This document shows, piece by piece, positions 5,060 to 58,090 of a stretch of 64,000 bases of DNA. The position numbers and the translations under genes were made by a program. Numbering within the stretch: the first letter of the stretch is position 1; every line of letters starts with the position of its first letter. A model generated the notes under the pieces. It was not told the DNA's origin. It saw nothing but the letters and a program-made list of their open reading frames with translations, and ran no database searches. This DNA comes from Vicinamibacterales bacterium (GTDB lineage Bacteria > Acidobacteriota > Vicinamibacteria > Vicinamibacterales > JAMQPK01), in NCBI GenBank assembly GCA_963850295.1, contig CAWKKU010000013.1:249437-313436 (forward strand), given 5' to 3'.

Positions 5060-7177
5060 TTACCCGATATCCATCAATCCAAATTTGCTCGGCCATGCAG
5101 CTTTCATCCGCTCCGCGAGCGGCGCGTCCGGCGTCTGCTCGCTGACATACCGCTGCGCTTCGTCGCGCGCCTGTCTCCATCAGCTCGTGGTCGCGCAGGA
5201 GATCCCCGGTTCGCAGCGTTGGCAGACCGGATTGACGCGTTCCAAAAAAATCCCCGGGGCCGCGCAGTTCGAGGTCGCGCTCGGCAATCTCGAATCCGTT
5301 CGTCGTGTCGGCCAGCGCTTGTAACCGCGCCTTGCCTTGCTTCGAGATCGCGAACTGATACAGCAGAATGCAGTGAGACTGGTGCGCCCCGCGGCCGACG
5401 CGCCCGCGAAGCTGATGCAGCTGCGAGAGGCCGAAACGTTCCGCGTGTTCGATCACCATGACGGTTGCGTTCGGCACGTCGATGCCGACTTCGATGACGG
5501 TGGTCGACACGAGCACGTGAATCTCTCCCGCCGCAAACGCGCGCATCACGCGATCTTTCGCATCCTGCTTCATCTTCCCGTGCAGCAACGCGACGCGGTA
5601 TTCAGGGAAGACGTCCTGCGCCAGGGTATCCGCCATCTCCGTGGCGGCCTTCAGATCGACTTTTTCCGACTCCTCGATCAGCGGATACACGACATAGGCC
5701 TGCCGTCCTTCATCCAGCTGCGCCCGGACCAGCTCGTAGACGTCGTTCCGCCGCGATTCCGGCTTCACCATCGTGCGGATCGGCCGTCTGCCCGGGAGGC
5801 ATGTCGCGAATGACAGACACGTCGAGATCGCCGTACACCGTCAGCGCGAGCGTTCGCGGAATCGGCGTGGCCGTCATCACCAGCACGTCCGGCAGCAGTC
5901 CCTTCTCCCGGAGCGTGGCGCGCTGCACCACGCCAAAGCGATGCTGTTCGTCGATCACCGCGAGGCCCAGCGAGCGAAAGTGCACCGTCCCCTGCACCAG
6001 TGCATGCGTGCCGACAATCAGATGGACGTCGCCCGAGCCAAGGCGCGCGAGCACATCCCGCCGGCGCAGGCCGGTGGTGGCGCCGGTGATGATCTCGACT
6101 CGAAAGCGCGACGCTTCGAGCAGTTTGCGCAGACTGAGAAAATGCTGTTCGGCAAGAATTTCCGTCGGCGCCATGAACGCCACCTGCAGCCCGTTTTCCA
6201 TCGCCACCACCGCCGCGAGAAGCGCCACGATCGTCTTCCCCGCGCCGACGTCCCCCTGCAGCAGCCGGTTCATCGGCGTGGTCTTCTGCATGTCGTCGAC
6301 GATTTCCTTCAACGCGCTGCGCTGGCCCTCGGTCAGCTTGAAGGGCAGCACGCGCCGGGCCGATTCACGGACGCGATCGTCCACGTGAATCGTGCGGGGC
6401 TTCGACTCTCGCACCGCCGCGCGCTTGCGCATCATCAAGCCCAGCTGAAACAGAAAAAATTCTTCGAAGATCACCCGGACCTGCGCCGGCGTTCTGAATG
6501 CGTTGAGTCGATCGGCGGGAGTGCCCTCCGGCGGAAAGTGCGTTTCGATGAGGGCGGTACGGCGGTCTGGAAGCTTCAGACGCTCGCGGAGCTCGACGGG
6601 AAACGGATCGGGCAGGTCTTCCGGCATTCGTGACAACACATCGAACACGAGCCGGCGCTGCATCTTCGGCGTCATCGAGCCGGCTTTTTCGTAGATCGGG
6701 AACGATGCGCCCCGTATGCGTGGTCTGCGCCTCTTCTCCGTCGCCCGGCTCGGCGCCTTCGGCGGCGTCCATCACCTCATAGTCGGGATTGATGAGCTGG
6801 AGCTGCGGGCGCGCTTCCACGGCGCCGAAGAGGATGACGCGCACGTCGCGCTTGAGGATGTCCTGCAGGAACGACTGGTTCATCCAGACGGCGAGAATCG
6901 AACCCGAGCTGTCGCCGATGAGCGCCTCGAAAATCTTGAAACCCGGCCGGCGGGTGGTGCGCACCCTGCTGCTCTGCACCCGGCCGCTGATGGACACTTG
7001 CTGGCCGGCTTTGAGGGTCGCGATCGGCTGCAGATGACCGCGATCTTCATAGCGCAGCGGAAACCGGTAGAGGAAGTCTTCGACGGTGGACAGGCCGACG
7101 CGCTGGAGATCTGCCGCGCGCCGCGGTCCAACGCCTTTCAGAAATTGAAGTGGTGTCTGCAGGTAGTCGGTGGACAC
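5060..7177 (-). CDS. recG: ATP-dependent DNA helicase RecG; interrupted by three single-base frameshifts in this sequence
   Basis: Three ORF fragments are collinear with RecG: 6365..7177 (wedge domain, GTG start), 5710..6675 (LLQGDVGAGKT Walker A, DEQHRFG) and 5004..5771 (helicase C, GRVGRG). Shifts lie near 6699, 5792 and 5170. The repaired tail is AQRYVSEQTPDAPLAERMKAAWPSKFGLMDIG, with a stop at 5060-5062. Confidence 0.88.
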
Positions 7178-9109: not shown

Positions 9110-9791
9110 AAACAAGAGTCCAAAGGCCGGGCGCGGTGCCAGCCGTGCCCTGCCTGTAATCCGGAAGCTGTACGAACAGCATCCCGATGCCGACACCGAG
9201 CTCGACTACAAGAATCCATTTCAGCTGCTGGCCGCGACCATCCTGTCCGCGCAGTCCACAGACGCCGGCGTCAACCGCGTCACACCCGCGCTCTTCAAGC
9301 GGTATCCGGACGCGTCCTCGCTCGCCAAAGCCAAACCGGCGGAGCTCGAACGGCTCATCCACTCGACGGGATTTTTCCGCTCGAAGGCGCGGTCACTCAT
9401 GGGCATGGCTTCGGCACTCGTGGAAACCCATGACGGCAATGTTCCGAACACCATGGAGGCGCTGGTCGAACTCCCCGGCGTCGGGCGAAAGACGGCAAAC
9501 GTCGTACTTGGCCATGCGCTTGGCGTTCCGGGGTTGCCCGTCGATCGGCACGTTCTGCGCGTCTCGAATCGGATCGGCATTGCCACCTCCGAAGATGCGG
9601 TAGAGGTGGAGCAGCAGCTCACGTCTGCCCTGCCGCCGTCAGAATGGACGAAAGCGTCTGACACGCTCATTCTTCACGGACGCCGTATCTGCAAGCCCAA
9701 GCCCCTCTGCCAGGAGTGTGTGGTGCGCGATGATTGTGATTTTTACCGGACCTTGGTGGCAGGTCCGAAGTCGAAAAAAAAGTCCGGCTGA
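9093..9791 (+). CDS. nth: Endonuclease III
   Basis: 232-aa ORF with the HhH-GPD motif (LVELPGVGRKTANVVLG), catalytic VDRHVLRV and a C-terminal 4Fe-4S cluster loop (CKPKPLCQECVVRDDC). Confidence 0.92.
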   Translation: MARSTKNKSPKAGRGASRALPVIRKLYEQHPDADTELDYKNPFQLLAATILSAQSTDAGVNRVTPALFKRYPDASSLAKAKPAELERLIHSTGFFRSKARSLMGMASALVETHDGNVPNTMEALVELPGVGRKTANVVLGHALGVPGLPVDRHVLRVSNRIGIATSEDAVEVEQQLTSALPPSEWTKASDTLILHGRRICKPKPLCQECVVRDDCDFYRTLVAGPKSKKKSG

Positions 9792-9799
9792 AGCCGGAC
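9782..9799. repeat. REP-like hairpin GTCCGGC-TGAA-GCCGGAC at the nth stop codon
   Basis: gtccggctgaagccggac. The nth stop TGA (9789-9791) lies in the loop and the last nth codons (aag tcc ggc) form the 5' arm. Confidence 0.8.
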
Positions 9800-9825
9800 G
9801 CTACGTCTATCAGTCCGGCAATCGA

Positions 9826-10620
9826 ATGCGTACACGGAAGCGGTTCGGCCAGCACTTTCTGGAGCCTGTGTGGGCGGACAAGGTGGTGGACGCGATCGCG
9901 CCGCTTCCCGGAGATGTCTTCCTCGAGATAGGACCAGGTGCGGGAGTCCTGACGCGGCGTCTGGCGCCGCGCGTGTCGCGGTTGACCGCCGTCGAAATCG
10001 ACCGCGACCTGATCGCCGCGCTCGCACCAGAACTTCCGGCCAACGCAACGATCGTCTCCGGCGACGTGCTCGAGCTCGACCTGCGCGAGATCCTGCCCGA
10101 GAGCGGACCAGTCCGCGTCGCCGGTAATCTTCCCTACAACATCTCTTCTCCAATTCTGTTCCGCGTGCTCGAGCTGGCGTCGCAGCGCCCGGTAACAGAT
10201 GCCACCTTCATGCTCCAGAGAGAGGTAGCGGACCGGATCATCGCGAGGCCTGGCACACGGGAATACGGTGTCCTGAGTGTGCTGACACAGTGGCACACAG
10301 ACGTCTCCCGCCTGCTCGCGATCCCGCCTGGCGCGTTCCGGCCGCCTCCCGACGTGCGCTCCGCGCTCATTCGGATGCGCTTTCGGCCGTCCCCATTTCC
10401 ACTGAAAGATCCCGTGGTGTTCGAGCGCATGGTGAGAAGCGTCTTCACCCAGCGCCGCAAGACGCTGGCGAACGCCCTGGCGCCTTTCGCCGCAAGCGTC
10501 GGGGTCGAAAGCACGGCGGCGCTCACCGCTGCGGCGATCGACCCGCGCCGGAGGCCTGAGACGCTGGAGGTTATTGAAATGGCTAGACTTGCCGACGCCC
10601 TGGCTGCCGAAAAAACGTAA
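9826..10620 (+). CDS. rsmA: 16S rRNA (adenine1518/1519-N6)-dimethyltransferase
   Basis: MRTRKRFGQHFLEPVWADKVVDAI...EIGPGAGVLT...NLPYNISSPILF. The internal ATG of ORF 9718..10620 was chosen to match the KsgA N-terminus. Confidence 0.9.
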   Translation: MRTRKRFGQHFLEPVWADKVVDAIAPLPGDVFLEIGPGAGVLTRRLAPRVSRLTAVEIDRDLIAALAPELPANATIVSGDVLELDLREILPESGPVRVAGNLPYNISSPILFRVLELASQRPVTDATFMLQREVADRIIARPGTREYGVLSVLTQWHTDVSRLLAIPPGAFRPPPDVRSALIRMRFRPSPFPLKDPVVFERMVRSVFTQRRKTLANALAPFAASVGVESTAALTAAAIDPRRRPETLEVIEMARLADALAAEKT

Positions 10621-16497: not shown

Positions 16498-16612
16498 CTA
16501 AATCTATACACTAGAATCTAAAATCTAAAATCTAGAATTAAATCTAGAATCTAAAGTGCTCGGTCGCTGGGCTCCAAATTCCAGATTCTAGATTACAGAT
16601 TCTAGATTCACC
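16498..16612. repeat. CTAG-rich heptamer tandem array (AATCTAR)n, GC-rich core, then an inverted array (AGATTCT)n
   Basis: Left array ctaaatctatacactagaatctaaaatctaaaatctagaattaaatctagaatctaaag. Core tgctcggtcgctgggctcc. Right array aaattccagattctagattacagattctagattcacc. aatctagaatct (16541-16552) is exactly complementary to agattctagatt (16583-16594 and 16598-16609). The element fills the gap between convergent genes. Confidence 0.9.
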
Positions 16613-16626
16613 TTAATGAGCTCGCG

Positions 16627-18502
16627 TCACCTGGCGAGCAACTTCTCAATTTCGTCCATCACCCGGTTCATCTTTGCTATGGTCAGCTCGAGCGGGCGGT
16701 CGGTGGTCATGTCGACGCCGGCATCGGTCAGCAGGTCGATCGGGTATTTCGATCCGCCCGCCGACAGGAACTGCATGTAACGCTTCGTCGCCGCAGCGCC
16801 GGCGGCGCCCGGCGTCAGCACTCCTTCAGAGAGCGCCGTCGCAGCGGTGAAAGACGTCGCGTACTGAAAGACGTAATAGCTGCTGTAGAAGTGCGGCACG
16901 AAGCTCCATTCGTGCTGGATGTAGTCGTCGACGACGCAGACGCCCTGGTCGTGGCCGTAATACTTCTTGGTGACGTCGATGTACAGCTTGGCGATCGAGT
17001 CGCCGGTGAGCGGCCGTCCCTGCTGCGCCATCTCATGGACGCGGAGCTCGAAGTCGGCAAACTGCGTCTGGCGGAACACCGTCGACTTCAGCGTCTCGAG
17101 ATAGTTGCCGAGAATGGCGATGCGTGTGGCCGTATCCTTCACCCGCTTCAGCATGTGGTCGAGGAGCAGATCTTCGTTGAACTGCGACGCCACCTCGGCG
17201 ACGAAGGTGTGATAGCCCGCCAGCTGGAATGGCTGCGACCTGTTCGAGTGATAGCTGTGCATCGCGTGGCCGAGCTCATGCGCGACGGTCGACATGTCGT
17301 AGTACTTGCCGTTGTAGTTGATTAACGTGTAAGGATGGACGTCGTAGGCGCCGCCTGTGGCGTACGCGCCGGACCGTTTCCCTTCATTCGGCAGCAAATC
17401 GATCCACCGCTCCGCAAACGCGCGGTTGATTGCCGCTACATAATCGGAGCCCAGTGGAGCGACGGCGGCGGCGATGTTGGCCTGGGTTTCCTCGGGCGTA
17501 TAACTGAGGTCGACCGAGCCCACGAGCGGCGCATACAGATCGTAATAATGCAGGGTGTCAACGCCCATCATGCGCTTGCGGAGTCTGAGATACCTGTGGA
17601 ACGACGGCAGGCTGCGGTTGACGCCCTCGATGAGACGCGAGTACACGGAGACGGGAATATTCGACGCATCGAGTCTGGCAGCGAGGTCGGATTCGTAGTT
17701 GCGCGCCTTCGCGTAGAACTGGCTGGCGCGCACGGAGCCGCTCAGCGTCGATCCAAGGGTCTGGCTGAACTTCCCCAGCGCGCCGAAATACGCGGACATC
17801 GCGGCCTCGCGGTCGGCGCGATTCGAGGACTGCCGGACGATCGCAAACGTCTGCTGATCCAGTTTCACCGCGCGGCCGTCGCCGAGGGTGATCGTCGGAT
17901 ACGGAAACTCCGCGTTGAGCAGCAATCCTGAGGTAGCGGAAGATGCGCCGGCCACTGGCGAGACGCTGGCCAGTATCCGCTCCTCCGCCTCGCTCAAGGT
18001 ATGGGGAGCCCGCCGCACAATTTCGTCGATGATAAAACCGGTACGACGCGAGGCGGGGCTCGACTGAGAGAAATTGCGCGAGCTTCGGGGCGCCGATTTG
18101 AAGGATCTCGGGTTCGACGAAGGCCACCTCGGAGCCGAACGACGCGCCGATCAACGACATCTCCTGGCGCATGCCCTGATGCTCCGCATGCCGTGTATCT
18201 TCGTCAGCGCGCAGAAACGCGTACGTCCCCAGCCGGCTCATCGTCTTTCTGAGCGCCGTGATGCCCTCGAGCGCGTCGGCGAGCGCCGCAGGCGAATGGC
18301 CGAGCGTGCCCTTGAAACGCCGAACGCCGGGAATCTCCTTTTCGAGCAGATCCTTTGCCGCACGCCACGCCGCGCCCGATGCGTAGATCGGCGTCAGATC
18401 CCACTTGTATTTTTCGGGAATGCTGGCGCGGTCGCGCTGCTGAGCCAGCGCGCCGGCGCTCAGCACAATGACGGCCACGACAACGGAAAGACGCGGCAGC
18501 AT
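16627..18502 (-). CDS. pepF: Oligoendopeptidase F (M3 family metallopeptidase), secreted; one frameshift in this sequence
   Basis: Fragment 17558..18502 has a signal peptide plus the PepF N-terminal region. Fragment 16627..18018 has the zinc motif VAHELGHAMH. The frames join near 18035 (..YRF(Y/I)IDEIVRRAPHTLSEAEE..). Confidence 0.85.
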
Positions 18503-18539
18503 TCCTATCCCTCAGCGGACCCTGCTGTACAATCGTGCG

Positions 18540-18797
18540 ATGCAGGCCCCAAGCCCGCCCATCATAGTGAAAATCGTCGAAGAAAACGAAATCGCCGGAC
18601 TCGGCGACGTCATGATGGAAGCGATCGGCCTCACCGGCGTCATCGCTATCGGGGCGCTGCTATTCGGCCTGGTGCTGGCGACGATCATCATCAGCTACCG
18701 AAAACTGCACGCCCGCCTGCATCCCGACGAAGACGCGCAAACGCAGCCGCTGGGATTGACGCCGACGGACTCGGTGAACGTTGAATCTAAAATCTAG
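18540..18797 (+). CDS. Small single-pass membrane protein (hypothetical)
   Basis: Internal ATG of ORF 18468..18797: MQAPSPPIIVKIVEENEIAGLGDVMMEAIGLTGVIAIGALLFGLVLATIIISYRKLH... TGTACAAT (extended -10-like) lies 7 nt upstream. The last codons gaa tct aaa atc tag lie inside the heptamer array. Confidence 0.5.
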   Translation: MQAPSPPIIVKIVEENEIAGLGDVMMEAIGLTGVIAIGALLFGLVLATIIISYRKLHARLHPDEDAQTQPLGLTPTDSVNVESKI

Positions 18798-18815
18798 AAT
18801 CTAAAATCTAGAATT
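18783..18815. repeat. CTAG-rich heptamer array (GAATCTA/AAATCTA)n
   Basis: gaatctaaaatctagaatctaaaatctagaattt. It contains the stop codons of both convergent genes (TAG 18795-18797 on plus; complement of 18808-18810 on minus). Confidence 0.92.
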
Positions 18816-19227
18816 TACGATCTGGGAACGCGCGAGAGAACGTCTGCTTCCGCTTGGATTGCCTGCGTGTCGCCTCTTGCGCCGCCCAATTGGCGCGCGA
18901 CGTTTCCAGCGATGCTGTGAAGATTGCACAGAGTTCAGTGGCTTCGCAAAGGAGGGTCTGGTCTGTTGCGATTGAGCCCTTCTGCATGAATTCGAGCCAG
19001 CCAACGGATTCGTCGATTTCCTCGACAGCGATGCCGAGCTTGGCGATGAACTCGGGACGCGATCGGCCCCGCTTTGACGCGCGGTAGTTCGACCATGCCG
19101 ATGTTGCGGCTTTGTAAAACTGCACGCCAGGCACCTGAGCGTCGGGCGACTTCGGCAGCTTTCGGTAAAACGCTAGTGACTCCAAGGCAAATTGTTCGGC
19201 TCGCGCGAGCAGTTCTGCTGAATTCAT
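18808..19227 (-). CDS. Four-helix-bundle protein (23S rRNA intervening-sequence protein family)
   Basis: MNSAELLARAEQFALESLAFYRKLPKSPDAQVPGVQFYKAATSAWSNYRASKRGRSRPEFIAKLGIAVEEIDESVGWLEFM... fits the family pattern (LP...., S..N..EG..R.S..EF...L.IA..E..E...WL). An internal ATG was chosen; the track ORF extends to 19293. Confidence 0.75.
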   Translation of the reverse strand: MNSAELLARAEQFALESLAFYRKLPKSPDAQVPGVQFYKAATSAWSNYRASKRGRSRPEFIAKLGIAVEEIDESVGWLEFMQKGSIATDQTLLCEATELCAIFTASLETSRANWAAQEATRRQSKRKQTFSRAFPDRKF

Positions 19228-19333
19228 GGCCTGACTAACCGCATGTAACGTGCCGTCACGAAAGACGGCCAATGTGTGACATGACGCAGCCATGATGGCA
19301 ATTCGTGAGACGCCGCAACGCTATAAAGTGTTC

Positions 19334-19368
19334 AGATTTTAGATTCTAGATTCTAGATTCTAGATTCC
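19334..19368. repeat. CTAG-rich heptamer array (AGATTCT)n, inverted relative to 18783-18815
   Basis: agattttagattctagattctagattctagattcc. Positions 19334-19352 are the exact reverse complement of 18791-18809 (19 nt). The array contains the pepA stop codon. Confidence 0.92.
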
Positions 19369-20867
19369 TGACTCCCCAATCTTCTCGCAACTTCCACCAA
19401 CGTCCGTACTCCGACGCCCGTCGGCCCCTTGGGCATGAACGGCTTGTTCTCCTCCGCCCAGGCGGTGCCTGCGATATCCAGGTGGACCCATGGAAGGCCG
19501 CCGGTGAACTCCTTCAGGAAGAGCGCGGCGGTGATGGCGCCGCCGATGCGGCCGCCGGTGTTGATCATGTCCGCGATTTCGCTTCGGAGCTGATCCTTGT
19601 ATTCATCGAACAGCGGAAGCTGCCAGCAGCGATCGCCGGCGCGCTCTGCCGCAGCGCCGACCTGATCCACGAAGGTCTGCGGCGTGCCGAAGAGGCCGCT
19701 GGTGATCTTGCCGAGCGCGATGCTGATCGCGCCGGTGAGCGTGGCGATGTCGATTAGATGTGTCGCGCCCATTTGCTGCGCGTACCAGAGCCCGTCTCCG
19801 AGAATGAGCCGACCTTCGGCGTCGGTGTTGACCACCTCGACGGTCTTGCCCGACGCGCTCGTCAGGACGTCCCCTGGTCTCAGCGCGCGGCCACCCAGCA
19901 TGTTCTCCGCAATCGGGATCACGCCGACCACGCGGAGCGGTATCTTCAACTCGGCAATCGCGCGAATGGCGCAGGCGACGGCTGCTCCTCCCGCCATATC
20001 GTCTTTCATGCGATCCATCTCCGCCGCGGGTTTGATGGAGATGCCACCGGTGTCGAAGGTGATGCCCTTCCCCACTAAACCGAGCACAGGTGTGTCGGGC
20101 GCCCCGGCCGGCTCGTAGCGGATCGCGACCAGCCGTGGAGCCTCCGCGCTCGCGCGGCCGACGCCGAGCAGCATGCCCATGCCGAGCCGCTCGAGTTGCT
20201 CTTGCTCCAGCACCTCCACAGCCAGACCGCCGCGGCGCGCAATGTCGCGCAACCGCTCGCTGAACACCGAGGGAATCAGTGCGTTCCCGGGCTCGTTATC
20301 GAGCGCACGGGCGAGGTTGCAGTGTTCTCCAATCACCCGCCCTCGTGTGACGGCTTCCGCCGTTGACGGCGATGCGTCGGAAACGAGGATCGCGAGTCGC
20401 TCCAGCTCGAACGGTTCGTACCCCGCTGTCTTGTAGCGTCCGCTGTCGAACTCCGCAAGCGTCAACCCTTCGGCAATCGCTTGCACCATGTCCGCAGAAG
20501 CCAGGGGGCCATCCGCGACGACCGTCAGGCGCGGGATCTTCTTCTGCCTGGCGAGCAATCCCACCGCCGTCGCAGAGCGCCGGGCGCGATCGATGGTGAA
20601 CTCAGACTGTTGCCCGAGACCGATCACTGCAAGCCGCCGGGGTTTGAACGTGGAGTCCGTAATCGGGGTGAAGAAGTGCTCGAACAGCTTGCCGCTGAAC
20701 TCCTTCGTCGCCATGGCGCGATCCACCTCGCGGCCGGTCGGCGCCGACCAGCGCGCGAGCGCGGCTGGCTGCTCTTCGAATGAAGAGGCGATTACAAGAT
20801 CCGTGTCCGCGGAGCGCGGATCACCCGTAAGTACATCCATCAGTTTGGATTTGTGTCCGTCCGTCAT
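19353..20867 (-). CDS. pepA: Leucyl aminopeptidase (M17)
   Basis: 504-aa ORF with VGKGITFDTGGISIKP and NTDAEGRLILGD motifs. The C-terminal codons cag gaa tct aga atc tag are encoded by the heptamer array. Confidence 0.92.
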   Translation of the reverse strand: MTDGHKSKLMDVLTGDPRSADTDLVIASSFEEQPAALARWSAPTGREVDRAMATKEFSGKLFEHFFTPITDSTFKPRRLAVIGLGQQSEFTIDRARRSATAVGLLARQKKIPRLTVVADGPLASADMVQAIAEGLTLAEFDSGRYKTAGYEPFELERLAILVSDASPSTAEAVTRGRVIGEHCNLARALDNEPGNALIPSVFSERLRDIARRGGLAVEVLEQEQLERLGMGMLLGVGRASAEAPRLVAIRYEPAGAPDTPVLGLVGKGITFDTGGISIKPAAEMDRMKDDMAGGAAVACAIRAIAELKIPLRVVGVIPIAENMLGGRALRPGDVLTSASGKTVEVVNTDAEGRLILGDGLWYAQQMGATHLIDIATLTGAISIALGKITSGLFGTPQTFVDQVGAAAERAGDRCWQLPLFDEYKDQLRSEIADMINTGGRIGGAITAALFLKEFTGGLPWVHLDIAGTAWAEENKPFMPKGPTGVGVRTLVEVARRLGSQESRI

Positions 20868-21399: not shown

Positions 21400-21427
21400 A
21401 GAGCTTAGAGCAAAGAGCTTAGAGCGA
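21400..21427. repeat. Heptamer array (AGAGCWW)x4, the reverse complement of the TYTGCTC family
   Basis: agagctt agagcaa agagctt agagcga. It encodes the last residues (..FALSSLL) and the TAA stop (complement of 21405-21407) of the JAMM gene. Confidence 0.88.
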
Positions 21428-21812
21428 AACACTCCGGGCGCCCTCCTTCGAATCGATACGCGCGCACCTCGTCGTCCAGCAGCGACACAATCACGTACAC
21501 GAACTCCGGACCGCTGTTTGCCTCGGCAATATCGGTCGGCGACGGCACTGGCTCGCTTGCCGGGTGTGAGTGATAGGCGCCGATGACGTCCAGTCCTTCC
21601 GCGCGCGCGGCTCTGATGGCTCTGAAGTGATCTTCGGGATGAACGAGGTATCGCGTCGCTTCCGGGGCGATGTTTCTTGCGCGCGCGCTCCGCGCGATGC
21701 GTCCGGCCGTGCCGAGCAACAGGCCGCAGCACTCGCGCGGCGCTTCGGTCCGCGCATGCGCCCGTAGCTCGGCAAGCACCTCGGCGGGTATATACAGGGG
21801 GTCTGACCCCAT
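21405..21812 (-). CDS. MPN/JAMM-domain metalloprotease (Mov34 family)
   Basis: 135-aa ORF with E..C.GLLLG and the JAMM motif YHSHPASEPVPSPTD. The ATG directly follows the tyrA TAA (TAAATG). Confidence 0.85.
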   Translation of the reverse strand: MGSDPLYIPAEVLAELRAHARTEAPRECCGLLLGTAGRIARSARARNIAPEATRYLVHPEDHFRAIRAARAEGLDVIGAYHSHPASEPVPSPTDIAEANSGPEFVYVIVSLLDDEVRAYRFEGGRPECFALSSLL

Positions 21813-22715: not shown

Positions 22716-22726
22716 TCAAGCTCCGT

Positions 22727-22766
22727 AATCTTCCAATCTCCCAATCTCCCAATCCGCCAATTCCTA
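22727..22766. repeat. Octamer tandem array (AATCTCCC-like) x5 between DAHP synthase and tyrA
   Basis: aatcttcc aatctccc aatctccc aatccgcc aattccta. The last unit contains the DAHP synthase stop (complement of 22764-22766). On the coding strand it reads (GGGAGATT)n. Confidence 0.88.
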
Positions 22767-34276: not shown

Positions 34277-36506
34277 ATGCGTTCGATTCGAAACGACTTC
34301 CTCGTGTTCGCTGTAGTTGCGGCCTGGACGGTGGCGCTCGCCGCCTCGAAGCCGGTCTTCTGGCAAACCGCCACGTTGAACGACTTTCTGCGGGGCGAGG
34401 CCGAGAACCTCTCCGTCGACGGACATGGCCGGCTCGTGCTGGGACCTGCGACCGAGATGGTGGCCGACACCACCGCTCCGTTCCTGTGGGCGATGGTCGT
34501 GGCCCCCGACGGCGCGATTTACGTCGGAACGGGCAACGAAGGCAAAGTCCTCAAGGTCGAGAACGGCAAGCCGACGACCTTCTTCGACGCGGCGGAGCTC
34601 GAAGTGCACGCCCTCGCGCTCGCGTCCGACGGTACTCTCTACGCAGCCACGTCGCCTGAAGGGCGCATCTACAAGATCGATCGTTCGGGAAAATCCGCTC
34701 CGTTTTTCGATCCGGACGACAAGTACATCTGGAGCCTGGCGCTCGACGAGAAGGGGAATGTTTACGCCGGCACCGGCGAAAAAGGCGTGATTTACAAGAT
34801 CACCCCGGACGGGAAAGGCAGCCCCTTCTACTCCACCAAGGCGACGCACGTCATTTCCCTCGCCTTCGAGCGCAGCGGGCAGCTGCTCGCGGGTACCGAA
34901 GGCCCGGGCCGTCTCTTCCGCGTCGACACCGTCGGGAAGGCGTTTCTCCTGCTCGATTCGACGTTTCAGGAGATTCGCGCCATTCGTCTCGATGCGCAGG
35001 GCAACATCTTCGTCGCCGCGCTCAGTGGCCGCACGACTGCAAATCAGCCGGCCCTCGCGCCGCCCGCGGATACCACCTCGTCGTCTCCAGCGCGCGAGCC
35101 GGTAGCCACGGTCACAACCGAGGTCACCGCCATTGCGGTCGTCGACACGGGCGGCGCCAGCGTCGGGTCGAGCGAGCCGCCTGCTCGCGAAGATCGGCGC
35201 AGCGGCCGCGGCGCGATCTACCAGAATCCGCCCCGACGGTCTTTGGGACATCCTCTGGGAATCAGGCGACGATTCGCCCTATGACCTGATGTTCGATTCG
35301 TCCGGCGCGCTCATCGTCGGCACAGGACGGAATGGCAAGCTGTACAGCCTGTCGGGCGAGCCCGCCACGGCGACATTGCTGATGCAGGCATCTGCCCAGC
35401 AGGTGACCGGATTTGCGCTCGATGCGAAGAAGAACGTCTACTACGCGACGTCGAACCCCGGAAAGATCTTCAGGCTCTCGTCGCAGCGCGCATCCGAAGG
35501 CACGTATACGTCGCTCGTCCGCGACGCACAGACGGTCGCCGACTGGGGCACGCTCAGCTGGCGCGCATCGGCGCCCACGGGCTCCAAGGTCGATATGTTC
35601 ACGCGCTCGGGTAACACCGCAACCCCGGACGATACCTGGAGCGCATGGAGCGGCCCCTACGCTGTTTCAGAGGGAGAAGAGATCAAGAGTCCCAATGCCC
35701 GGTATCTGCAATGGAAGGCCGTGCTGAGCGGAAAACAGATGACGCCGGTGCTCACCTCCGTGTCTGCCGCCTACGTTCAGCGCAATCTACGGCCCAAGAT
35801 CACGAGCCTCACCGTGCACCCGGCGGGCACCGTGTTTCAGAAGCCATATCCGACCGGAGATCCGGATATCGCCGGATTCGATGACCAGGCTCCCGATCGC
35901 CGCATCCTCAGCTCGACCGCGAATCCTCCCAGCGGATCGTCGGCGCTTGGCCGGCGCGCCTATCAGCGCGGCCTGCAGACGTTCGTCTGGCGCGGCGAAG
36001 ACGCAAACGACGACGAGTTGAGGTACGAAATCCTCTATCGCCGCGAGGGCGAGACGGCATGGAAGTCTCTGAAGTCCGATCTCGATGAAACGATCTTCGT
36101 GTGGGATACCACTTCGGTTCCGAACGGTACTTACGTTGTGAAGGTCGCCGCGTCCGATCGCGCGTCCAACACGCCGGGCGCCGCACTGGATGGTGAGCTC
36201 GAGAGCTCCGCCTTCGACATCGATAACGGACCTCCCGCGGTCAACGTCACCGCATCGCGGCCCGCGAATGGCCGGGTCACGATCCAGTTCGAGGTTCGCG
36301 ACGAATGGTCGTCGATTTCGAAGGTGGAATATTCACTCGACGCGCAGCGCTGGCAGGTCGTCTACCCGCGCGATGGCATCTTCGACTCGCGGAACGAACA
36401 GTTCGAGCTGACGCTGGAAAGCGCGGACGCGGCCAAGGGTCTGATCATCCGCGCCTACGATGCGAAGAACAACTCCGCCACGGCACGGGGGGATGCCCCG
36501 AAGTAA
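34277..36506 (+). CDS. Secreted beta-propeller repeat protein with C-terminal Ig/FN3-like domains; one frameshift in this sequence
   Basis: Repeated blocks (DGAIYVGTGNEGKVLKV, DGTLYAATSPEGRIYKI, KGNVYAGTGEKGVIYKI, SGALIVGTGRNGKLYSL, KNVYYATSNPGKIFRL). Fragments 34277..35284 and 35133..36506 join at ..GAIY(R)IRPDGLWDIL.. when one c of cc 35221-35222 is removed. Confidence 0.7.
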
Positions 36507-36590
36507 GGAAGAACGTAGAACGAAGAACGAAAAGAATCACGCGTGACGGCGTCTCTTTATTCCGTCTTCGTTCTTCGTTTTTCCTTTTCT
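36507..36590. repeat. Paired inverted heptamer arrays (AGAACGW)n / (GTTCTTC)n forming a hairpin between convergent genes; likely terminator
   Basis: agaacgt agaacga agaacga (36510-36530), a loop containing tcacgcgtga, then cgtcttc gttcttc gtttttc (36563-36583). acgaagaacgaa (36520-36531) is complementary to ttcgttcttcgt (36567-36578), and a T run follows on the plus strand. Confidence 0.85.
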
Positions 36591-36593
36591 TGG

Positions 36594-37385
36594 TTATAGA
36601 GTTTTCCACCCGTCCACGCGCACCGAGACATACGCGCGCAGAGGGGCACGGACGGTCGTGTTCGACACCAGCCACACCACATTCTGAGAGACGGGCGTGC
36701 CGGCGGCCCTGGCGGGCTCGAACCGCGCGGTCGCGGCGGCATTGAGGAGCTCTGACAGTTCCCGATGCGTCGGCAGGCGGCGGCCGGGGCGCGTGCGCTC
36801 GCCAATCAGCTCCACGTCTTCGGGGTACCCGTCCGCGGTGACCAGCATGGCGAACACGACTTCTTCGTCGTCCCGATTCATGACCGCTGTGGGCATGATC
36901 GCTTCGGCATACGCGCGGGGCAGCTCGACGGTCGGCAGGTAGATGTCGGTCGTGCGCGCACGCGCGCTCAACGTCATCGCCGCTTTCAGCGATTCAGGGT
37001 GACGGATAGGCGTCTGCGCCAGCAGGAATGCCCCCACCGCGAGACACAGCGAGGCGACAATCGACACGCTCACGCACGCCGAGGCGCGCCGCGGATCGTC
37101 GAAGAGGTTCCGGAAGGTCCGGCCGAAGGACGCCTTCTCCTCGGCGTCCCACCGCTGCAGAATATCTGTCTGCAGACGGCCGAGCCCGGGCATCACTGCG
37201 ACGTCGTCGGTGCGGGCGATCAACTGGAGCGCCTTGCGGATGGCTTCCAGATCGTCTCCCTCGACTCGGCACGAGGGGCAGCGATCCAGATGGTCCGAGA
37301 TGGCGATGCGATCGGCGACAGGCAGCTCTTCGTCGTAAAACGCCGAGAGGTCGGCTTGCACGCGCTCGCAGGTCCAGGTCAGCAT
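36594..37385 (-). CDS. Anti-sigma factor (zf-HC2 N-terminus, one TM helix, periplasmic C-terminal domain)
   Basis: 263-aa ORF MLTWTCERVQADLSAFYDEELPVADRIAISDHLDRCPSCR. A TM segment near ASACVSVSIVASLCLAVGAFLLA. It overlaps the upstream sigma gene by 7 nt. Confidence 0.8.
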   Translation of the reverse strand: MLTWTCERVQADLSAFYDEELPVADRIAISDHLDRCPSCRVEGDDLEAIRKALQLIARTDDVAVMPGLGRLQTDILQRWDAEEKASFGRTFRNLFDDPRRASACVSVSIVASLCLAVGAFLLAQTPIRHPESLKAAMTLSARARTTDIYLPTVELPRAYAEAIMPTAVMNRDDEEVVFAMLVTADGYPEDVELIGERTRPGRRLPTHRELSELLNAAATARFEPARAAGTPVSQNVVWLVSNTTVRAPLRAYVSVRVDGWKTL

Positions 37386-51056: not shown

Positions 51057-51853
51057 ATATTCCGCGCTTTTCGCTCTTCGTTCTCTGCTCTTTGCTCTTT
51101 CTCGCTTCGGCCTGTTCGTCGAATCCGCCGGTCACGGCTGGACCAGGCGAGGCGGATCAGATTCTGCTCGACCGGGGCAATGCGGCACTCAAAGAACGTC
51201 AGTGGAGCCGCGCGCGAACCTATTTTGCGGAACTGCTCGAGTCCTATCCACAGAGCCCGCTGCGCGCCGAGGCGAAGCTGGGCGTCGGCGACACGTGGCT
51301 CGGCGAAAACAACAGCGCCTCGTACGTCTACGCGCAGAATGAGTACCGCGAGTTCCTCGCGTTCTATCCGACGAATCCACGGGCCGACTACGCGCAGATG
51401 CAGCTCGGCATGGTGCATTACAACCAGATGCTGAATCCGCAGCGCGACCAGACCGAGACGAAAGAGGCGATTCGCGAGTTCGAGACGTTTCTCACACGCC
51501 ATCCGTCCAGTGCCCTGCTGCCGCAGGTGAAACAGCGGCTTCGGGAAGCGAAAGACCGGCTGTCCGACTGGGACCTGCAGGTCGGCAACTTCTATCTCAG
51601 CATCCGGCTCTACCCGTCGGCCATCGATCGGTACCGCCATATCCTCAAGAACGACCCGGAATACACCCGGAGAGACGCTCTGTACTTCCACCTAGCGGAA
51701 AGCCTCGAAAAGTCCGAAAAGAAGGCTGAAGCTCTGCCCTATTACGAGCGGCTCCTCAACGAGTTCGACAAGAGCGAACATCTCGAAGAGGCGCGGCGTC
51801 GAGTCGAGCGACTCAAGGGCGAACTGAACATCGCCCCCAAAGCAGAGCTGTAA
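51053..51853 (+). CDS. bamD: Outer membrane protein assembly factor BamD (lipoprotein, TPR-like)
   Basis: 266-aa ORF with lipobox LFLASAC-S and a YfiO/BamD-like repeat pattern (AEAKLGVGDTWL..., ADYAQMQLGMVHYNQ...). Confidence 0.8.
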   Translation: MNIPRFSLFVLCSLLFLASACSSNPPVTAGPGEADQILLDRGNAALKERQWSRARTYFAELLESYPQSPLRAEAKLGVGDTWLGENNSASYVYAQNEYREFLAFYPTNPRADYAQMQLGMVHYNQMLNPQRDQTETKEAIREFETFLTRHPSSALLPQVKQRLREAKDRLSDWDLQVGNFYLSIRLYPSAIDRYRHILKNDPEYTRRDALYFHLAESLEKSEKKAEALPYYERLLNEFDKSEHLEEARRRVERLKGELNIAPKAEL

Positions 51854-58046: not shown

Positions 58047-58088
58047 TTTGCTCTCTGCTCTTTGCTCTCTGCTCTTTGCTCTCCGCTC
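58047..58088. repeat. Heptamer tandem array (TYTGCTC)x6 filling the rpiB-deoC intergenic gap
   Basis: tttgctc tctgctc tttgctc tctgctc tttgctc tccgctc. Positions 58051-58074 are identical (24/24) to 1443-1466 inside glcD. Confidence 0.92.
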
Positions 58089-58090
58089 TA

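Follow-up and report, generated by a model that had tools for sequence, protein, structure and literature searches.

An inverted pair of heptamer arrays encloses a four-helix-bundle gene

In a 64,000-nt stretch of a Vicinamibacterales genome (assembly GCA_963850295.1, contig CAWKKU010000013.1; the whole stretch is called the window hereafter), we characterized an element at 18783–19367 in which a gene for a four-helix-bundle (4HB) protein is enclosed by two inverted arrays of short tandem repeats. The element lies between the aminopeptidase gene pepA and a conserved membrane-protein open reading frame (ORF). A preliminary description of this DNA had pointed to a 19-nt perfect inverted repeat, which can be read directly from the sequence: positions 18791–18809 (aatctagaatctaaaatct) are the exact reverse complement of 19334–19352. 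The inverted repeat exceeds these 19 nt, which form the core of arms of 32–34 nt with 88–91% complementarity. Both arms are tandem heptamer arrays, GAATCTA / TAGATTC, located at 18783–18824 and 19333–19367 by Tandem Repeats Finder (TRF). In the sense of the gene, the 5′ arm (19333–19367) holds about five tandem heptamers, CAGATTT and then four copies of TAGATTC on the plus strand, which read GAATCTA in gene sense; the 3′ arm (18783–18824) holds about six, GAATCTA or AAATCTA on the plus strand. A two-unit heptamer pattern has 16 matches in the window, compared with 0.15 expected from shuffles, and all 16 are confined to two loci, the 4HB element and a gene-less hairpin at 16500–16609.

The interior between the arms contains one gene only, as the preliminary description had stated. 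This 4HB gene (18808–19227, minus strand; 139 aa) matches PF05635 and TIGR02436, is separated from the 5′ arm by a non-coding leader (19228–19332, minus strand) and runs into the 3′ arm, where its last residues (FPDRKF) and stop codon fall. The interior is also lower in G+C than its flanks, with 57% in the 4HB coding sequence and 65% in pepA, and with G+C at third codon positions (GC3) of 66% and 79%, respectively. Scans for sigma-70 promoters and intrinsic terminators found nothing at the element or its arms. Rfam returned only tRNAs in the window at gathering score, and no rRNA, and a permissive Rfam scan gave only sub-threshold miRNA-hairpin noise, at the gene-less hairpin. The junctions between GAATCTA repeats spell TAGAAT, five of the six bases of a −10 hexamer, at 19340–19367 (minus strand) and 18783–18815 (plus strand). 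On both arms this hexamer is directed into the element; the scan found no paired −35, and other unit types lack TAGAAT.

The probable start of the 4HB gene is the ATG at 19227, which gives 139 aa; most homologs have 139–140 aa and an equivalent start, and an alternative upstream ATG at 19293 would yield 161 aa. The match to PF05635 is borderline (34.1 bits, cut-off 33.8), and that to TIGR02436 reaches 49.1 bits with a cut-off of 24. We collected 226 homologs with precomputed PF05635 assignments, which are ∼70–80% identical proteins from metagenome-assembled genomes (MAGs) of Vicinamibacterales; viral contigs contained no relatives. An AlphaFold2 model of the monomer, with a predicted local distance difference test score of 91.9, has four helices at residues 3–23, 28–51, 57–83 and 90–132. 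Its best Foldseek matches are 2RLD (S23 family; TM-score 0.87 on the target), 2GSC (Xcc0516) and 4DWL (Avd), each deposited with five or more chains, and phmmer also recovers 2RLD (E = 3.7e-7). The conserved family motif is GxxRxxxSxxxNxxE (PMC3936711). In the window protein, Lys39, Ser43 and Asn47 match the spacing of its R, S and N positions, and the G and E positions are occupied by Gln36 and Ala50 (…QFYKAATSAWSNYRAS…). In sequence and alignment, the subfamily of the window protein deviates from the canonical NIAEG motif. The ratio of nonsynonymous to synonymous substitution (dN/dS) between the window gene and its relatives is 0.06–0.12, and the gene at this locus is under purifying selection. 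A possible second paralog at 10173–10334 (minus strand) was judged spurious, being a weak tblastn match (E ∼1e-4 against the window alone) antisense within a KsgA-type methyltransferase ORF (9718–10620).

Inverted arrays accompany the gene across its family

We compared 83 family loci, numbered L001 to L083, of which L001–L003 are contexts and the remaining 80 were taken from a genome collection. They range from close relatives down to members at 40–50% identity in other phyla, and cover other Acidobacteriota as well as Nitrospirota, Chloroflexota, Verrucomicrobiota, Bacteroidota, Patescibacteria, Desulfobacterota and Planctomycetota. For each gene, the 350 nt upstream were compared with the 300 nt downstream for the best-scoring inverted repeat without gaps, and a score of at least 14 was taken as the threshold. 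This threshold was reached at 81% of 73 testable family loci (48 of 53 in Acidobacteriota and 11 of 20 in other phyla), compared with 1.2% of 492 random positions of the same geometry in the same loci (Mann–Whitney p ∼1e-35) and 3.2% of 464 other genes of those loci. The 15 other genes that passed include five additional PF05635 paralogs and an insertion-sequence transposase with its own terminal repeats. The expectation that paralogs and homologs of the gene would carry flanking inverted heptamer arrays held, at 81% compared with 1–3% of controls. The stem-plus-ORF layout characterizes the gene family as a whole and is not peculiar to this locus.

Of 74 flanks on each side, TRF detected arrays in 66 upstream and 68 downstream. 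Their period is 7, or 8 in a minority of loci, with a median of 4.6–4.7 copies and a mode of 4–5; arms typically measure ∼32 nt. The unit varies by lineage and includes GAATCTA, GAAAGTA, GATTTCG/GATTGCG, AATTTGT, GGTGATCT, TGGTCATT and others. Despite these differing units, the arms of each element are always mutually complementary, which we confirmed by eye in L077 and L056. Where one genome carries two paralog subfamilies, each retains its own unit (L007/L016, L010/L026, L012/L045 and L004/L022). The upstream arm is absent in L002 and L004.

The arms are polar and remodel the ends of neighboring genes

The 5′ arm has more G than C in 55 of 61 loci (p = 5e-11), with a composition of 10% C and ∼34% G+C. 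Stop codons occur in at least two of its frames at 42 of 65 loci, and the 3′ arm, read in sense, lacks a stop codon at 32 of 65. The hairpin has a fixed polarity, with a 5′ arm that is C-poor and, whichever strand is read, rich in stops. Owing to the inversion, a gene that enters from either side encounters the stop-rich arm first and is terminated at the boundary.

At the junction in the window, pepA (M17 leucyl aminopeptidase; 19353–20867, minus strand) ends in …RRLGSQESRI inside the array, the 5′ arm covering its last four codons and its stop. The 3′ arm encodes the last codons and stop of the conserved 109-aa membrane-protein ORF (18468–18797, plus strand), which is convergent with the element. 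In relatives without an adjoining array, pepA has a conserved tail, …LAFTSHTWGEFGTP, before its stop; with an adjoining array the tail has diverged and is array encoded, ending in ESRI (window and L026), ESRN (L007) or ETRI (L045). The membrane-protein ORF likewise ends in …TPTGHQ without an array and in …ESKI, …KSKI or …KTRI with one; in the window its end is …TPTDSVNVESKI. Judging from these alignments, the element supplies stop codons and new C-terminal residues to host genes, whose native termini are thereby overwritten.

The preliminary description had named pepF and pepA as the flanking genes. This holds for pepA; the immediate left neighbor is the membrane-protein ORF, with pepF beyond it. 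The pepF gene (M3 oligoendopeptidase; 16627–18502) is split into overlapping ORFs at 16627–18018 and 17558–18502 in different frames and is a single ORF in relatives. The split is either an indel error of long-read assembly or the mark of a pseudogene, and similar fragmentation occurs in the related MAG loci L002–L004.

The element is an old resident of this junction

Related genomes fall into two arrangements. In clade A (window, L007, L017, L026 and L045), the prephenate-dehydrogenase gene, a JAB-domain gene and pepA are followed by the 4HB gene between its two arms, with pepA and the membrane-protein ORF both pointing toward the element, and then by pepF and, in the opposite direction, amiC. 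In clade B (L001–L005), the order is pepA, rsmH, the membrane-protein ORF, (pepF), the 4HB gene between its two arms, an amidohydrolase gene, a further arm and amiC, the membrane-protein ORF and amiC being read in the reverse direction. All clade A genomes carry the 4HB gene and its arrays at the junction between pepA and the membrane-protein ORF. When the window gene is compared with its relatives, synonymous sites prove saturated (proportion of synonymous differences, pS, ∼0.7–0.8). Because the same junction is occupied across saturated synonymous divergence, the element is an old, vertically inherited resident rather than a fresh insertion, and the idea that a cassette was recently inserted at this site is not supported. 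The low G+C, which could be taken to mark a foreign origin, fares no better: family members lie below their host locus in G+C in every genome examined, so this is a family trait and not a sign of recent import.

The interior leader shows only 31% mean column identity among orthologous modules, with only the bases adjacent to the ATG conserved. Since the array unit has been kept while the leader diverged, the arrays must be maintained, by selection or by concerted evolution. From these comparisons, both the repeat unit and the protein are conserved although neutral divergence is saturated (pS ∼0.73).

Whole copies, gene-less derivatives and recombination between arms

A set of copies is found in the complete acidobacterial chromosome of L056 (OY969886.1), within its nuo operon. 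The order there is nuoC, nuoD, a gene-less hairpin, nuoE, a full module, nuoF, nuoG, a short hairpin and nuoH, with element coordinates of 5382–6380 and 10138–10273, and L080 has the same layout. The third copy, the short hairpin, matches both ends of the full module with 89% identity over 144 columns, a match that covers arms and leader as well as ∼30 nt at either end of the ORF. As both ORF ends are retained, the short hairpin is an internal-deletion derivative at a different site. The nuoE stop lies inside the 5′ arm, and the starts of nuoE and nuoF each follow immediately on a 3′ arm. Only ∼14 nt separate the 5′ arm of the full copy from its start codon, too few for the ORF to have a promoter of its own in between. 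We also considered that the arms might be intrinsic (Rho-independent) terminators and rejected this, given arms of ∼34% G+C without a terminator-like site and elements that fit tiny spacers inside the nuo operon and hence cannot be terminators.

Other loci record exchanges between the arms. L026 holds a half-deleted 4HB ORF. In a comparison of L026 with L045, the flanks align in reverse orientation at 93.5% identity, and the interior aligns forward at 70%; these opposed alignments indicate that the segment between the arms was inverted and has a history differing from that of its flanks. The unit of the local element recurs in other arrays at 13 of 45 loci, compared with 1.7% for shuffled units, and several of these extra same-unit arrays are gene-less inverted pairs. 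These alignments show that the elements have multiplied as whole units and decay to gene-less hairpins by internal deletion. The arms, for their part, recombine as DNA, with inversion, interior replacement and arm loss as the outcome. The mobile module of the preliminary description is thus retained at the level of the family, on the three L056 copies and on the L026/L045 inversion and interior replacement, and dropped as a recent insertion here.

The gene-less hairpin of the window (16500–16609) has ∼8 GAATCTA-type units, a loop of ∼26 nt and ∼5 inverted units, and lies between the convergent genes amiC and pepF. This junction exists in four states: empty (L007), with the gene-less hairpin (window), with a full 4HB module and an amidohydrolase gene bounded by a third array (L003 and L005), and with a metallophosphoesterase gene (L026 and L045). 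In the last of these, GAATCTA-type inverted arrays enclose a 249-aa calcineurin-like metallophosphoesterase (PF12850; L026 8449–9476 and L045 2689–3621), the gene being fragmented in L045. In L001 (4413–5591), L003 (4410–5547) and L005 (6425–7560), an Amidohydro_2 gene is bordered on one side by the 3′ arm of the module and on the other by a third array, ahead of amiC. These two arrays share one orientation, and the gene looks as if it had been placed inside a duplicated or split arm. A second gene-less hairpin in the window, at 36499–36590, consists of inverted CGAAGAA / TCTTCGT arrays between the convergent ORFs 35133–36506 (plus strand) and 36594–37385 (minus strand). The stop of the plus-strand ORF falls in its first unit, its folding z-score is ∼−4.4 to −4.8 on both strands, and its unit is similar to that of the arms around the L021 family member.

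Several further arrays lie beside other genes of the window. An array of period 7/8 at 22723–22765 (CCAATCTC) adjoins the prephenate-dehydrogenase gene and is kept in place in relatives (L004 392–454, L007 2197–2239, L026 2488–2526 and L045 9794–9833; GGAAGATT-like, on the other strand). Single, non-inverted GCTCTYT heptamer arrays occur beside gene ends or starts at 1443–1466, 21400–21425, 51065–51099 and 58047–58089, and the JAB-domain ORF (21405–21812, minus strand) terminates within such an array (…FALSSLL, then the stop).

Relation to known repeat systems and 4HB proteins

Intervening sequences (IVSs) of rRNA are located within the 23S rRNA gene, in helix 9, 25 or 45. The ORF-bearing IVSs of Leptospira and of Coxiella burnetii, whose product is S23p, share with the element a PF05635 protein, an ORF within terminal inverted repeats that form a stem of ∼28–34 bp, and heptamers in the stem region. 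The Coxiella IVS has a 28-bp terminal stem that is cleaved by RNase III and carries two to three tandem GACAGAT heptamers at its 5′ end; the number of heptamers depends on the strain, and RNase III cuts at the first repeat (PMC4990558). Despite these similarities, protein-coding genes flank the copy in the window, and conserved 23S motifs are absent from all 83 loci. The comparison bears out the proposal that stem and ORF together make up a discrete module akin to these IVSs. Family genes have also been described in rRNA insertions of candidate phyla radiation bacteria, and scattered within cas operons (PMC3936711).

Heptamer arrays have been described independently of the gene. In Xanthomonas campestris, Rehm et al. 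(2015; PMC4692102) reported 186 GGGAATC arrays, with four units preferred and 70 convergent inverted pairs. These transcribed arrays sit at or across stop codons, their G-rich strand being the sense strand, and were read as G-quadruplex formers (PMC4692102). One of them, repeat #15, is placed between XCC0517 and XCC0516 and extends over the annotated start of the latter (PMC4692102, supplementary file 2), which encodes a crystallized PF05635 family member. The Xanthomonas arrays, the GGGGAYT arrays of Nostoc (PMC4692102) and the cyanobacterial short tandemly repeated repetitive (STRR) heptamers resemble the arms of the element in their 7-nt tandem units, a mode of about four copies and placement at stop codons, and the Xanthomonas arrays additionally in their many convergent inverted pairs and in the array that abuts XCC0516. 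They differ in the G-tracts of the Xanthomonas and Nostoc arrays, and Rehm et al. draw no link to a 4HB gene (PMC4692102). A G-quadruplex, which takes at least four tracts of at least three G, was rejected for the window element, whose GAATCTA and AAATCTA units contain no GGG. MacGregor (2015), in a paper on TAACTGA repeats, does not mention the PF05635 family, and full-text literature searching, with incomplete coverage, found no link of heptamer arrays to the PF05635 gene family.

The genetic organization also recalls two classes of mobile repeats. Repetitive extragenic palindromes and their associated tyrosine transposases (REP/RAYT, or REPtron) likewise combine a gene flanked by inverted copies of a short repeat with dispersed gene-less copies; the RAYT protein, however, is an HUH/Y1 transposase with known chemistry, and the 4HB protein has no recognized catalytic domain. 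Foldback transposons and miniature inverted-repeat transposable elements share with the element terminal inverted repeats made of short units in tandem, derivatives with internal deletions but both ends retained, and several copies per genome, and differ in that the element is without a transposase and without a detectable target-site duplication. The protein has a counterpart in Avd of diversity-generating retroelements, which has the same fold (4DWL). Avd assembles as a positively charged pentamer, described as ‘similar to S23 ribosomal proteins’, and its ligand is an RNA stem-loop beside a long-range duplex (10.1101/2023.10.23.563531). Unlike Avd genes, the window gene has no nearby reverse transcriptase or template and variable repeats, its neighbors being pepA, the membrane-protein ORF, pepF and amiC, and Avd genes have not been described as enclosed by heptamer arrays.

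Interpretation and alternatives

We consider it probable that 18783–19367 is a resident copy of a widespread, once mobile family of foldback, IVS-type elements, ancient and vertically inherited at this locus. Each element comprises a PF05635/TIGR02436 4HB gene of the S23p/Avd-like kind within two inverted arrays of ∼4–5 tandem 7-nt units (8-nt units in a minority), and the best reading of it is as a free-standing counterpart of the ORF-bearing 23S rRNA IVSs. Several observations weigh against this interpretation. No target-site duplications were found, the longest word shared outside the arms being 2–3 nt, which is the chance level; there is no transposase, the only protein encoded by the element being that of PF05635, without known catalytic activity; and the element at this locus has been static over deep divergence. 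Arrays at times enclose other genes (the metallophosphoesterase of L026/L045 and the amidohydrolase of L001/L003/L005), and Xanthomonas arrays far outnumber family genes. Acidobacteriota dominate the sample, and the rRNA-borne IVSs were compared by their published descriptions. Finally, the non-Watson–Crick arm positions across 70 elements comprise 84 G·U and 82 A·C. These strand-symmetric mismatches give no positive signature of selection on a sense-RNA stem, so complementarity is maintained by something strand symmetric, for which arm-to-arm conversion, a double-stranded or bidirectional function, and selection too weak to show are candidates.

The strongest competing explanation is that the hairpin came first, inverted heptamer arrays being a general intergenic feature of the host, such as 3′-end or mRNA-stability hairpins akin to the GGGAATC class of Xanthomonas, in whose loops 4HB genes, and now and then others, land or survive; the arrays would then not belong to any element. 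Several other 7–8-nt arrays with different units in the window, the existence of gene-less hairpins and the other cargo found between arms all fit this idea, as do the 70 inverted pairs of Xanthomonas in the presence of few family genes (PMC4692102) and the location of rRNA IVSs at helix tips. Such flanks, however, occur at only 2–3% of other genes, and the 5′ arm of L001 lies in a divergent promoter region and not at the 3′ end of any gene. The explanation is weakened above all by the L056 short hairpin, whose two retained ORF ends imply that at least such gene-less hairpins derive from full modules, and by the paralog subfamilies that keep their own units within one genome (the four pairs listed above). 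We regard it as unlikely. It also seems quite unlikely that the arms are purely an RNA device, serving solely to form an RNase III-processed sense stem that releases or regulates the 4HB mRNA, with no DNA-level or mobility role. The minimum free energy fold of the sense transcript closes the long-range array stem (−232.6 kcal/mol, z = −4.5), the homologous stem of Coxiella and Leptospira IVSs is an RNase III substrate (PMC4990558), and elements inside operons are not terminators; on the other hand, G·U pairs are not in excess of A·C mismatches, inversion and interior replacement imply that the arms act as DNA, and copies multiplied as whole units, leaving deletion derivatives. Gene-less hairpins fold on both strands, with z-scores of −4 to −5. 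A recently acquired cassette between pepA and its neighbor, marked by foreign composition, would account for the G+C and GC3 below the flanks and for the altered C-termini of pepA and the membrane-protein ORF at the junction. With the same gene and arrays at the same junction in L007, L017, L026 and L045 at nearly saturated pS, and with low G+C in family members of every host examined, we find this highly improbable.

Returning to the once-mobile foldback element, a working model can be drawn by analogy with better-known systems. Transcripts of the host would carry the element along, in this case behind pepA and in others within operons such as nuo. Once transcribed, its arms may form an AU-rich duplex of ∼32 bp, which a double-strand-specific RNA nuclease would cut or insulate, much as RNase III acts on rRNA IVSs. 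The analogy with Avd, together with the copy-number mode, raises the possibility that the protein, as a basic pentamer, acts on the arrays that enclose its gene, five protomers being matched by about five units per arm; such an action could serve regulation or propagation. In the fullest form of this idea, PF05635 pentamers would be dedicated trans-acting partners of heptamer-array hairpins, one unit per protomer, making up a REP/RAYT-like selfish or domesticated system in many phyla; we offer this only tentatively and hold it to be possible but doubtful. If true, such a partner system would account at once for how 23S rRNA IVSs arose, for the long-noted surplus of heptameric tandem repeats in bacterial genomes and for what the PF05635 family does.

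To our knowledge, the PF05635 family has gone without a function for 30 years. The ORF-bearing rRNA IVSs, the function of the S23p/Avd-like family and the abundant heptamer arrays of bacterial intergenic regions, the Xanthomonas inverted pairs among them, have been treated as three separate puzzles, and a single type of element appears to underlie all three. In that case, the function of the protein becomes directly testable, and gene-less heptamer hairpins could be annotated as derivatives of the element. Because it alters host genes in a predictable manner, through the stops and C-terminal residues it supplies, and can occupy essential operons, the element matters for gene annotation and for the processing of operon mRNAs.

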